A stretch of 35,511 bases of DNA from Candidatus Azambacteria bacterium GW2011_GWA2_42_9 (GCA_000994805.1 LCEQ01000006.1:1-35511); one strand, 5' to 3'. Shown: positions 18,993 through 35,341, counted from the first letter of the stretch. A program made the numbers and translations. Notes: a model not told the origin generated them from the sequence alone.

Positions 18993-19343
18993 CTACTCTG
19001 AGTCGAGAACGATGATCATTCTCGTTTTCTTTCGAGTTATCCGTGATTTTTCCGTAAGAGGAGCCAAGATCACCTTGGTAGCTGGCGTGTGAGCACTGTG
19101 AGTATTCCGACTTAACGCCAATTGCCTGGCTTCAACAATTGTTTCCGGCCAGTTTTTATGGCCGTGACCCTCTGGGCATCTGTACCAATTCATTACTGGA
19201 ATTCGATTAGTAAATTTTGGCCTAAGACTGCGGTATGTGGCTCCCAAATGCCGAAGTGGGCACAATACATCGGGACCACTAATTTGTACCAGTTCTAGCT
19301 TTTCTACACTTAAACCCGACAGATCGCATAAATCGAAAGTCAT
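18993..19343 (-). CDS. hypothetical protein with two CPxxH motifs (possible Zn binding)
   Basis: AAGGAGG SD before ATG 19343; CPLRH and CPEGH. Confidence 0.6.
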   Translation of the reverse strand: MTFDLCDLSGLSVEKLELVQISGPDVLCPLRHLGATYRSLRPKFTNRIPVMNWYRCPEGHGHKNWPETIVEARQLALSRNTHSAHTPATKVILAPLTEKSRITRKKTRMIIVLDSE

Positions 19344-19421
19344 GATCAATTCCTCCTTATGGAGAAAATTGATGGCATGCATACTAAAATTCAGCGCAAT
19401 GCTGATTTAGTATGTGATTAT

Positions 19422-19561: not shown

Positions 19562-20143
19562 ATGAAGTACGAACTGCCCAAATTGGAATACGGCTACGAC
19601 TCGCTTGAGCCGTATATTGACGCCAAGACAATGGAAATCCACCACACTAAGCATCATCAGGGTTATATTGATAAACTTGATGCCGTTTTGGAAAAATATC
19701 CCACAATAGCGGACAAGAGATTAGGGGATTTAATAAAAGAATTACCGACTCTCGCGATAGATGAGACCGACAAAACGGTTTTAAAAAACAACGGCGGTGG
19801 CCATTTGAACCATTCTCTATTTTGGCAGATTATGAGCCCGCAAAAGAATATTGACACAACTCTTGCTGAAGAAATAACAAAAACTTTCAACTCAACTGAT
19901 GAATTTAAAAAGCTTTTTAGCGACACCACAACAAAACATTTCGGAAGTGGCTGGGCGTGGTTGGTAAGAGATGAAGGCGGCGCATTAAAAGTTTACTCAT
20001 TGCCTAACCAAGATTCGCCCTTGGCTTTGGGTCACACTCCGATTTTCGGCTTGGACATTTGGGAACACGCCTATTATCTCAAATACCAGAACCGCCGCGC
20101 CGAATACGTTGATAACTGGTGGAACGTTTTGAAATTATTGTGA
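19562..20143 (+). CDS. sodA: Fe/Mn superoxide dismutase, Mn-type signature
   Basis: HHTKHH, NGGGH, FGSGWAWL, NQD, DIWEHAYY. Confidence 0.93.
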   Translation: MKYELPKLEYGYDSLEPYIDAKTMEIHHTKHHQGYIDKLDAVLEKYPTIADKRLGDLIKELPTLAIDETDKTVLKNNGGGHLNHSLFWQIMSPQKNIDTTLAEEITKTFNSTDEFKKLFSDTTTKHFGSGWAWLVRDEGGALKVYSLPNQDSPLALGHTPIFGLDIWEHAYYLKYQNRRAEYVDNWWNVLKLL

Positions 20144-20455
20144 GGGGTTGACCCCGCCCTTGAGATTTCTATAAAGTAATAAGTATGTTTTATATGTATG
20201 TGCTCTTATTAGATAATGATCAGCTTTACATTGGTTTTACTAATGATCTTAAAAAACGTATTAAATTGCATAAAGAAGGGAAAGTATTCACAACTAAGAA
20301 ATTTCTTCCGGTAAAACTTGTATATTATGAGTGTTATCTTGATAAAGAAGATGCTGAACAAAGAGAATTTATGATAAAAAGATTCGGTAGTACTTACTCC
20401 CATCTAAAAAAGAGAATTACCAACAGTATAAAGAAATCTCAAGGGCGGGGTTGAC
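20144..20455 (+). mobile_element. putative small mobile cassette: GIY-YIG gene bounded by inverted and direct repeats
   Basis: 20-bp perfect IR at 20151-20170 and 20432-20451; 9-bp DR GGGGTTGAC at 20144-20152 and 20447-20455. Confidence 0.6.
20185..20454 (+). CDS. stand-alone GIY-YIG nuclease (UPF0213/SLX1-like)
   Basis: FYMYVL...LYIGFT.DLKKRIKLH..G...T...LVYYE......A..RE. Confidence 0.9.
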   Translation: MFYMYVLLLDNDQLYIGFTNDLKKRIKLHKEGKVFTTKKFLPVKLVYYECYLDKEDAEQREFMIKRFGSTYSHLKKRITNSIKKSQGRG

Positions 20456-20478
20456 AGATTCTGTAGATTTGATATACT
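20451..20478 (+). promoter_or_regulatory. sigma70 promoter pointing into the structured region
   Basis: TTGACA (20451-20456), 16 nt, TATACT (20473-20478). Confidence 0.65.
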
Positions 20479-20484
20479 CAAGGT

Positions 20485-20940
20485 AGGTTGGGTAGCGGGC
20501 TAGTAGTAGCCCGTGATTACAGCCCAATCCTGCGACTGACCAACGATGGTCAGTCGCAGGATTGACGGTTCTTTTCTTCTCAACAAAGCCAAAAAATCGG
20601 CGCGGCAGTCTTTGCCAAACACCATCAGACTGTCCGAATCTGCCAGAGACTAAACCCCTGCGGTTTGCTTCTGCCGCGCCAAACAAAAATACCGCCTTGC
20701 GCCTGATCATCAGCGGTCAGGGGCAAGGCGGGACGCCTTCCATGGGAGACGGATGGCTCTTACCGTGGCAAGGCCAGACGGCACAGGCCCACCACCCTCT
20801 ATCCAAGTCCAAGCCATCCTGGATAGAGGCGCACTTTTCCTAACGAATCCCGGCCGCATCTACCAAGCCGCGGCTCGGGTGGCCGCCCAAACCCGTCAAA
20901 AGCGGGCCGTGGGCATGGCAGTCACCAAACGGGAGAGCGG
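20485..20940 (+). ncRNA. candidate large structured non-coding RNA of unknown class
   Basis: GC-rich intergenic region with at least eight helices, long-range pairings and a possible pseudoknot; upstream promoter; no credible ORF. Confidence 0.6.
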
Positions 20941-20949
20941 GAATTTCTT

Positions 20950-34745: not shown

Positions 34746-34841
34746 TGATGAAGCTAATACAAAATAAAATTCCTTAGCCCCATTCGCCTTCGGCGAACGG
34801 CTCGCCCCCACCTAGAATTTTATTTTGTATTAGCTTCATCA
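34746..34841. mobile_element. MITE/REP-like 96-bp element with 27-bp perfect terminal inverted repeats
   Basis: TGATGAAGCTAATACAAAATAAAATTC (34746-34772) and its reverse complement (34815-34841) around a GC-rich 42-nt core. Confidence 0.65.
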
Positions 34842-35341
34842 CGCAAATTCATATAATTTGGTAAATCTTCTAATTTATTTAAACCCAGATGTTTTAAAAA
34901 ATCAAAGGTAATATTATAAATGTAAGATCGGCCATCTTCGGGATTATTATATTTCCCTATAAGCCCCCTGATTGCCAAACTCTGCAAAATGAAACTGCAG
35001 TTAACGCCGCGCAAATTTTCAATTTGCGCGCGGCTTATTGGCCCGCGATACGAGATAATTGCGAGTGTTTCCAAAGCTGCTGGCGATAAGTCCTCTTCAA
35101 AATCGCTTTTTATAAGTTTTTTTACCGGTTCAACCGAATAAGGCGAAGCAACCAGTTGGACTTTACCGTCAAAAAACACAAGGCGCAGTCCTCTTTCATT
35201 TTTTTCATAGTCGTCCACCAACTCCTTTAATGAGCCGTTGATTTCTATTTCGCCGGTTTCTAAGATCTCGGCCAGCTTTTTTACGGTAACGGGATGGCCG
35301 GCCGTAAATAATAAACTTTCTAAAAGCGATTTATAATTCAT
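34820..35341 (-). CDS. scpB: SMC-Scp complex subunit ScpB
   Basis: LESLLF, LS.AALETLAIISYRGPISRA.IE.LRGVN, FL.HLGL..LEDLP. Confidence 0.93.
   Translation of the reverse strand: MNYKSLLESLLFTAGHPVTVKKLAEILETGEIEINGSLKELVDDYEKNERGLRLVFFDGKVQLVASPYSVEPVKKLIKSDFEEDLSPAALETLAIISYRGPISRAQIENLRGVNCSFILQSLAIRGLIGKYNNPEDGRSYIYNITFDFLKHLGLNKLEDLPNYMNLRDEANTK

Follow-up and report, generated by a model that had tools for sequence, protein, structure and literature searches.

The GIY-YIG proteins closest in sequence and fold to the one described here are Slx1, At-HIGLE and the UPF0213 (YhbQ-type) proteins, with which it shares a minimal domain lacking a DNA-binding module. In the available portions of the literature these relatives are regarded as vertically inherited repair enzymes. 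Thus, Dunin-Horkawicz et al. (2006), in the accessible part of their survey, describe the Slx1-like proteins of prokaryotes as minimal, non-selfish and inherited for the most part vertically, predict for them a role in break repair, and place the selfish GIY-YIG members in the UvrC lineage and not in the Slx1 lineage (PMC1564403). At-HIGLE, according to its accessible text, is a homodimer that acts on four-way junctions, making two coordinated nicks on Holliday junctions (PMC9071465). With regard to the Candidate Phyla Radiation (CPR), Tsurumaki et al. (2024) report, in the available portion of their text, GIY-YIG ORFs in rRNA insertions that are not introns and seemingly stand outside homing (PMC11270868), whilst a GIY-YIG protein is mentioned, in the part of another report at hand, among genes transferred from Patescibacteria (PMC12455944). 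At the level of abstracts, the literature on COG2827, UPF0213 and YhbQ yielded nothing relevant, and no GIY-YIG element with terminal inverted repeats, a target-site duplication or miniature inverted-repeat forms was found there, nor one in Patescibacteria or the CPR.

The locus considered in this study, a 299-bp cassette of Candidatus Azambacteria encoding an 89-aa GIY-YIG protein, can be set against each of several known systems. It resembles the rRNA-insertion ORFs of the CPR in gene kind and bacterial group, and one member of its family lies in a 23S gene; for those ORFs, however, the accessible text describes no terminal repeats, duplication, ORF-less derivatives or sites outside rRNA (PMC11270868). 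I-TevI, the T4 Seg proteins and the endonuclease domain of Penelope elements are likewise GIY-YIG nucleases serving mobile elements, but carry additional DNA-binding domains or a reverse transcriptase and propagate through homing or retrotransposition, whereas the cassette has no extra domain, occurs at unrelated insertion loci and gave no intron family match in the DNA analysed. The likeness to REP/REPIN–RAYT systems lies in a nuclease gene bracketed by inverted short repeats that is single-copy, vertically kept and under purifying selection at its locus, and in populations of short hairpins in related genomes that carry the same ends. It differs from them in that the enzyme is of the GIY-YIG and not the HUH type, and in its 4-bp duplication, multiple copies in some genomes and horizontal spread; in these genomes, RAYT homologues are associated with distinct palindromes of their own. 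Insertion sequences and miniature inverted-repeat elements (Correia elements and the IS630-derived RUP) share with it terminal inverted repeats, a short fixed duplication, a preferred target and deletion derivatives that keep the ends, but at 299 bp and 89 aa it is far below known autonomous insertion sequences, of which IS200, at ~700 bp, is to our knowledge the smallest, and its protein is not a DDE, DEDD, HUH, serine or tyrosine enzyme. Finally, the RNase III-excised intervening sequences of 23S genes are similarly bounded by inverted repeats, form a long stem in the transcript, sometimes carry an ORF and are sporadic; for the cassette, excision from RNA is putative, and most of its copies lie outside rRNA.

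The DNA analysed, hereafter the window, is a stretch of 35,511 nt from Candidatus Azambacteria bacterium GW2011_GWA2_42_9 (GCA_000994805.1 LCEQ01000006.1:1-35511), and all features of the cassette lie on its plus strand. The upstream neighbour, sodA, encodes an Fe/Mn superoxide dismutase (19562–20143; identified by its ORF, Pfam domains Sod_Fe_N and Sod_Fe_C, and synteny) and terminates with a stop codon at 20141–20143. Its stop is followed by GGGG (20144–20147), a native flank resembling the right tip of the element, and by TTGA (20148–20151), the left copy of a 4-bp target duplication. The element itself extends over 299 bp from a CCCC tip to a GGGG tip (20152–20450), these limits being those of homology to the nearest copy, in genome G017, with orthologues of 299 and 300 bp. 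Within it are the left terminal inverted repeat (20152–20173), the gene for the 89-aa nuclease of the Slx1/UPF0213 lineage (20185–20454), which runs on into the flank, and the right terminal inverted repeat (20429–20450), which encodes the residues KKSQGRG. The right duplication copy, TTGA at 20451–20454, constitutes the first four bases of the −35 box of a promoter-like sequence, TTGACA-16-TATACT (20451–20478; 11 of 12 consensus matches, with TG upstream), which is kept in relatives with and without inserts. Further 3′, for context, lies an 18-bp hairpin followed by a T-rich run (20525–20564).

Much of this arrangement had been recognised in the initial annotation, which described the ORF between perfect 20-nt inverted repeats, the start of the unit directly after the sodA stop, and the end of the nuclease within the right repeat, which also supplies most of the −35 box. 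All three points hold. The inverted repeat (20151–20173 against 20429–20451) covers 23 nt with 96 % complementarity and a perfect 20-nt core. As the sodA ORF occupies 19562–20143, the direct repeat starts one base past its stop, at 20144. The last codons of the nuclease lie in the right repeat, its stop TGA (20452–20454) falling inside the duplicated TTGA. Within the window, the 20-mer of the repeat is found at these two sites only at up to three mismatches (0.01 expected; 100 shuffles), and across the 548-kb, 31-contig assembly it again occurs at the same two sites only, the cassette being single-copy in this genome. The sequence GGGGTTGAC is present twice, at 20144–20152 and 20447–20455; for any one pair of positions 250–350 nt apart, the rate of 9-mer repeats in the window is 1.7e-5, and for 256 placements around the repeat ends ~0.0045 such direct repeats are expected. 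Two other readings of the sequence were rejected. The repeat is not a plausible sodA terminator, as its arms are 255 nt apart, a T-run is absent and empty sites speak against it; and a putative promoter at the left junction, TTGACC-18-TAAAGT (9 of 12), does not stand out from the many chance matches of the region, where 12 were found and 3.3 are expected.

Several further features of the window were recorded. Between the patatin-like gene and sodA is a 129-aa ORF without a Pfam match (18993–19382, minus strand), near which a perfect TTGACA-17-TATAAT sequence is found on the minus strand (19450–19422). ARAGORN places an 85-nt tRNA-Phe, with its anticodon at 39, at 34974–35058 (minus), where Rfam returned no tRNA at gathering score, and a 27-nt inverted repeat (34746–34841) lies close to this call. 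Downstream of the cassette, a stretch at 20480–20945 has a GC content of 0.52–0.64 in 200-nt windows, compared with 0.24–0.50 in the surrounding 5 kb. It lies 3′ of the strong promoter, opens with the 18-bp hairpin and is without a long ORF of known family. Similar GC-rich stretches with a common AACAAAGCCAA motif and a terminator occur at the same place in relatives G007 and G003, and the body of the stretch is absent from G009 and G005. Rfam searches, at gathering thresholds or with E up to 10, gave no family match for the cassette or for the GC-rich stretch, the latter on either strand. The stretch may correspond to an undescribed RNA of ~450–550 nt.

The 89-aa protein matches the Pfam GIY-YIG family (PF01541) with an E-value of 1.1e-12 and 48.5 bits, against a cut-off of 22.6. 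Amongst 19 repeat-bearing members of the family, Y5, G17, R25, H29, E61 and K65 are invariant, and Y15 and E49 are at least 90 % conserved; Y5, Y15, G17, R25, H29, E49 and E61 are taken, by analogy with I-TevI and UvrC, to be catalytic. In hmmsearch the best matches are the UPF0213 proteins BH0048 (1zg2; 7.8e-15) and EF2693 (1ywl; 1.4e-11), followed by SLX1 homologues (6e-6 to 3e-3), with At-HIGLE also near SLX1, then I-TevI (2e-3) and UvrC (0.05). The predicted model (pLDDT 89.7) is that of a bare domain, and Foldseek places 1zg2, At-HIGLE, 1ywl and Slx1 above I-TevI and UvrC. Both profile and predicted fold therefore assign the protein to the structure-specific Slx1/UPF0213 lineage. A homodimer model scored 0.64; of proteins solved as pairs, 20 of 30 attain this mark, compared with one of 23 solved as single chains. 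The best control scored 0.00, and the runs agreed in 100 % of contacts with pLDDT of at least 88. This modelling supports pairing of the nuclease as a homodimer.

Evidence that the cassette arrived by insertion derives from comparison with relatives. Six genomes of the same family share the gene order patatin-like gene–sodA–gap–fmt, and in two of these the empty site predicted in the initial annotation is present: in G009 the sodA stop is followed by GGGC, a single TTGAC and the same promoter, and in G005 by CGAC, TTAAC and the promoter. In three other relatives the gap is occupied differently. G007 carries (L038) an unlike hairpin insert of ~150 bp with CCCAG…/…CTGGG ends between two TTGA sequences; G003 (L041) has two tandem 57-bp hairpins with CCCCGTTAGAAGT ends and TTGA between and after them; and G002 (L036) has another insert, GC-rich, ~190 bp long and bounded by inverted repeats. 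Counting the cassette of the window, the gap between the sodA stop and the promoter holds four different inserts in four genomes; this spot is therefore a hot spot, and the −35 TTGA of the promoter is the target. What lies in the window is a genuine insertion, and an old one, of a minimal mobile cassette with a 4-bp duplication.

Outside this locus, the nearest copy (L006, contig C23 of G017) belongs to another genome family, has 72 % amino acid identity and lies between two unrelated genes. Similarity of the DNA to that of the window is bounded by the repeats, the arms of which differ by compensating changes. Upstream of L006 is a 169-aa ORF without a Pfam match, which enters the left repeat, and on the other side a C39-peptidase-like gene; the nuclease ORF runs eight codons past the right repeat. 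With regard to other empty sites, only cassette L008 gave a further example, in G007, where 5 nt are replaced and a clean duplication is absent, and the flanking neighbours of two cassettes of G003 (L092 and L090) are rearranged in genomes of the same genus. Amongst assembled contigs of four runs, in which rare forms would not be visible, neither an empty site nor a circle junction was found.

The initial annotation had proposed a 9-bp target-like duplication. Whilst GGGGTTGAC is indeed present on both sides, other copies display a duplication of 4 bp (TTGA), so that the remaining GGGG and C are native flank that resembles the tips by chance, as the empty site has like bases there (in G009 the stop is followed by GGGC-TTGAC). 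In G003, 12 of 14 hairpin elements have an identical 4-mer on both sides. When elements bearing the ends of the window's cassette are included, flanking 4-mers are identical in 18 of 22 (TTGA in 8, TCAA in 8, TGAA in 1 and TGGA in 1), although these rows are not independent, since the cassette of the window, L159 and L186 represent one insertion and two of the G003 copies are tandem. In none of the 22 elements is TTGA paired with TCAA across the insertion; the 4-mer is therefore repeated directly and does not belong to the inverted repeat. In a control with mispaired flanks the 4-mers match in 136 of 462 cases, and the target is therefore specific. The base after the 4-mer, oriented as TTGA, is C in 12 cases and T in 4. 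More distant cassettes are irregular, with 7-bp repeats at two tRNA sites, where the GGGG tip restores the 5′ end of the tRNA. DDE transposases are the enzymes that usually leave a fixed 4-bp duplication.

Relatives of the window protein were identified in 32 of 41 related genomes, at up to eight per genome, several with internal stops. In keeping with the initial annotation, repeats flank homologues as well. At 49 homologous loci with enough flank (three contig-edge hits and one duplicate frame being left out), a flanking inverted repeat of 14–23 nt was found at 22, compared with 9 of 1000 mispaired-flank controls, and a repeat of at least 14 nt was absent at 27. In the 22 repeat-bearing loci the left arm starts 10–43 nt before the ATG and the elements measure 261–347 bp; CCC is found in 18 of these 22 element tips, as opposed to 4.4 % of background 8-mers. 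On a tree of 47 proteins, from which rows with more than one stop or fewer than 70 aa were dropped, the repeat-bearing state requires six changes, against 15.8 when shuffled (0 of 500 shuffles as low), and in the window's clade 13 of 14 members bear repeats. The protein tree disagrees with the genome families, sister pairs coming from different ones; repeat-bearing genes cluster on it, and the repeats track the protein tree and not the genome tree. Related copies lie at unrelated loci, two of one type occur within G003, and RNA-gene sites of family members include the inside of a 23S gene, a 16S–tRNA-Ile spacer, the 5′ end of a tRNA-Val gene and a position beside tRNA-Asp. A search with the single window protein returned 10 related loci, and kin copies are also present in Minisyncoccia, WWE3 and Wolfebacteria bins and in a Bdellovibrionales bin. 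These cassettes constitute a family of mobile elements of very small size, carried by ultra-small groundwater bacteria of the Patescibacteria type, and encode no classical transposase. As judged from the sequences compared, the family is large, undescribed and has spread horizontally between loci and lineages.

A longer GIY-YIG subfamily of 93–115 aa with a C-terminal KKWNREWK motif was also encountered at four loci (L115–L118) in Ignavibacteria and Flavobacteriaceae. These have flanking inverted repeats containing GCGAAGGC, of 17 nt in a Dokdonia record, and the cassette arrangement may thus extend beyond Patescibacteria.

Further copies of the repeat, with or without the ORF, had been envisaged in the initial annotation. 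Whilst none exists in the organism's own assembly, copies with the same ends but no ORF are found elsewhere. A scan of metagenome contigs with an exact 17-mer of the arm returned 60 loci, of which 52 were single matches in unrelated contexts and were set aside. ORF-less elements with the ends of the window's cassette and TTGA or TCAA on both sides measure 100 bp (L160), 61 bp (L163 and L177) and 149 bp (L166). L160 and L166 align to the 3′ 88 and 128 nt of the cassette and its ORF, and are therefore deletion derivatives, whilst L164 and L187 are 28-bp hairpins of the tips alone, without a duplication. The 61-bp element also occurs, with other flanks, in contigs of three public runs and in genome G002; the identity of its flank to the window's genome (69 %) reflects too much divergence to define an empty site. 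In G002 this element is present, yet no GIY-YIG protein closer than 46 % identity was found.

More broadly, 37 instances of the pattern TTGACCCC-(35–95 nt)-GGGGTTGA were counted, spread over 13 of 41 genomes, its reversed control being absent from all 41. The pattern TTGA-CCCC…GGGG-TTGA was found in 11 of 32 genomes with a GIY-YIG match and in two of nine without, a weak association. The most extreme case is G019, with ~60 hairpin elements (58 and 62 arms, against 5 and 7 in the control), where no cognate ORF-bearing copy was found in the assembly, its sole small GIY-YIG gene being without such ends. Many ORF-less copies thus exist without a cognate cassette, which counts against strict dependence on the GIY-YIG gene. 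The hairpins of this 1-Mb genome are 65–105 bp long with CCCGTTAGAAA ends, and some copies are ~85 % alike. In the window's own genome, two hairpins of ~30 bp (C17:23276–23305 and C8:1226–1254) have stems like the cassette tips, AATCCCGCCCTTCAG and TCCCCCACCCTTT, the TCCCCCACCCTTT stem being identical to the tip of the G003 cassettes L008 and L090; these may be footprints or minimal derivatives.

The age of the insertion is indicated by L159 and L186, which represent the same sodA site in relatives with flanks of 75 % and 84 % identity. Because two diverged relatives carry it, the insertion at sodA is, by sequence comparison, old. Amongst the three orthologous copies at this site dS ranges from 0.69 to 1.19 and dN/dS from 0.06 to 0.11, with repeats, TTGA and promoter identical throughout. 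Two copies in G003 similarly display a dS of 0.90 and a dN/dS of 0.07, with 22-nt ends and adjoining bases identical, and other pairs of copies have dN/dS values of 0.07–0.21. Low dN/dS combined with unchanged ends means that both the gene and the end sequence are constrained. The element at sodA is hence single-copy, old and under purifying selection with conserved ends, a state that fits the likeness to REP/RAYT systems drawn in the initial annotation.

What moves these elements was approached by a search of six transposase families in 5–11 genomes. No match was obtained to DDE_Tnp_1 (0/11 genomes), to rve (0/5) or to DDE_3, Transposase_mut and the TnpB zinc ribbon (0/8 each), which accords with the ~300-bp mobile unit, lacking a classical transposase, that had been postulated. 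Y1_Tnp, which is RAYT-like, matched in 8 of 14 genomes (G003, G007, G009 with two, G027, G019 with five, G012 with two, G030 and G021 with two) and gave no match in this genome. The best-supported candidate for the family's mobility enzyme, we infer, is its own Slx1-like nuclease, and the reading that we favour, with somewhat better than even confidence, is that of a 299-bp insertion element in the −35 TTGA of a promoter, belonging to a family moved by that nuclease. The element landed in the TTGA of the −35 box (TTGACA) just 3′ of sodA, duplicating four bases. A homodimeric nuclease would recognise the stem-base junction of the paired repeats, whether folded from a single strand or extruded as a cruciform, along with the TTGA(C) next to it, and nick at both ends, with excision and insertion completed by host ligation and repair. 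The proposal, already made in the initial annotation, that the nuclease would act on its own hairpin ends draws on its place in the Slx1/UPF0213 lineage and on the modelled homodimer. Family members move between loci and lineages, lie beside or inside RNA genes, and decay to ORF-less hairpins that keep the ends. In RNA, the repeats would form a stem of more than 20 bp to be cut by host RNase III, so that insertions within or next to RNA genes and operons would do no damage. The predicted transcript fold closes with a stem of ~24 bp (z −5.3), and the genome has a gene for RNase III; the modelled RNA stem and the RNA-gene sites fit removal of the insert from transcripts.

A bolder form of this proposal is put forward only tentatively. 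Here the cassettes would constitute a new class of autonomous DNA transposon, smaller (~300 bp) than any yet known, with a bare 89-aa Slx1-lineage GIY-YIG homodimer as their only encoded function. This enzyme would make its cuts at TTGA(C), next to the stem with its CCCC/GGGG tips, on either end of the element as well as in the target, and host ligase would join the resulting 4-nt cohesive ends; RNase III would remove the insert from transcripts, so that rRNA operons and promoters become habitable, and ORF-less hairpins would be non-autonomous offspring. The favoured reading, movement by the element's own nuclease, is itself weakened by several points: GIY-YIG enzymes are hydrolytic nucleases for which strand-transfer activity is not known, and the 4-bp duplication is DDE-like; in addition, the cassette is the only one in the window's genome, where its ends do not recur. 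Also to be set against it are the ORF-less elements of G019 and G002, the weak association of the hairpin pattern with GIY-YIG genes, the irregular duplications at distant cassettes, the 27 of 49 homologous loci lacking a repeat, the result from the assembled contigs of four runs, and the limitation of the transposase search to six families in 5–11 genomes.

In a rival reading, which we consider rather unlikely, the inverted-repeat hairpin is the mobile entity with some other mover and the GIY-YIG gene is a rider. The gene could be mere cargo; alternatively, its product could be a nuclease of the homing type for which ORF-less hairpins are the substrate, the gene then being copied into the cut hairpin by repair that uses the shared repeats as homology. 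Riding by repair-copying would parallel homing endonuclease genes in introns. Such an arrangement would suit G019, with its ~60 ORF-less elements and no cognate cassette, as well as the weak tie between the hairpin pattern and GIY-YIG presence (2/9 against 11/32) and the fixed 4-bp duplication typical of DDE enzymes. It also agrees with the tip CCCCGTTAGAA, which is kept across at least seven genome families with differing interiors, and with the ORF remnants in the 100- and 149-bp elements, which are compatible with a cycle of gain, decay and loss. However, no other mover from the DDE_Tnp_1, rve, DDE_3, Mutator or TnpB families is apparent in the 5–11 genomes searched, GIY-YIG is the sole gene seen between such ends, and the only Y1-like gene found next to an arm lacks a second one. 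Moreover, at least two clades have an ORF that extends into the right repeat, repeats and protein diverge together, and repeats of 20 nt are short for homology-directed copying.

Less probable again is that the sodA-locus element is now immobile, its product being a domesticated repair or maintenance nuclease and its repeats being kept as a stem for RNA processing or stability or for local regulation. The cassette is single-copy in this genome and occupies the same site in two diverged relatives (dS 0.7–1.2, dN/dS 0.06–0.11) with ends unchanged, its RNA fold has a strong closing stem, and a role in break repair has been predicted, in the accessible part of the 2006 survey, for prokaryotic Slx1-like proteins (PMC1564403). 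If only an RNA stem were being kept, compensating changes would be tolerated, whereas the ends have stayed identical in sequence over a dS of ~1; insertions, duplications and horizontal spread are, moreover, family-wide. As this suggestion concerns present activity, it is compatible with a mobile origin. Movement of hairpins and cassettes by RAYT (Y1/HUH) homologues, with the flanking TTGA a cleavage tetranucleotide as in IS200/IS605 instead of a duplication, would suit the eight genomes with Y1_Tnp matches, the pre-eminence of G019 in both hairpin elements and such matches, and a hairpin-family arm abutting the ATG of a Y1-like gene in G003, but is highly improbable given that no Y1 match was obtained in G000, G017, G018, G020, G002 and G005, all with cassettes or hairpins, that at four of five loci (in G003, G007, G009 and G027) the Y1-like gene is flanked by its own, different palindromes of ~22 bp, and that none of the G019 arms listed (all but 20) lies beside a Y1 gene.

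RAYT-like Y1 genes lie between their own ~22-bp palindromes at L076 (800–1498 on the minus strand of contig C9 in G003) and likewise at L130, L131 and L132. The G003 palindrome, CTTGGTGACGCCGTCACCAAG, is also found three times in frame within the Y1-like ORF and once more where the following ORF begins, an arrangement that recalls the palindromic elements of Rickettsia.

Should the nuclease move the element, it would represent a new enzyme class for DNA transposition and set a new lower size limit for autonomous elements. Even on a cautious reading, the cassettes provide a clean, testable system of 61–300-bp elements with a defined 4-bp target, and a minimal 89-residue sequence- or structure-directed nuclease may serve as a tool. 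For the lineage of the enzyme, movement by its own nuclease would overturn the view of the prokaryotic Slx1-like branch as purely vertical repair enzymes. For the organisms themselves, it would explain why small GIY-YIG genes are so many and so patchy in the streamlined genomes of Patescibacteria, as well as the origin of their short hairpin repeats and of their non-intron rRNA insertions.
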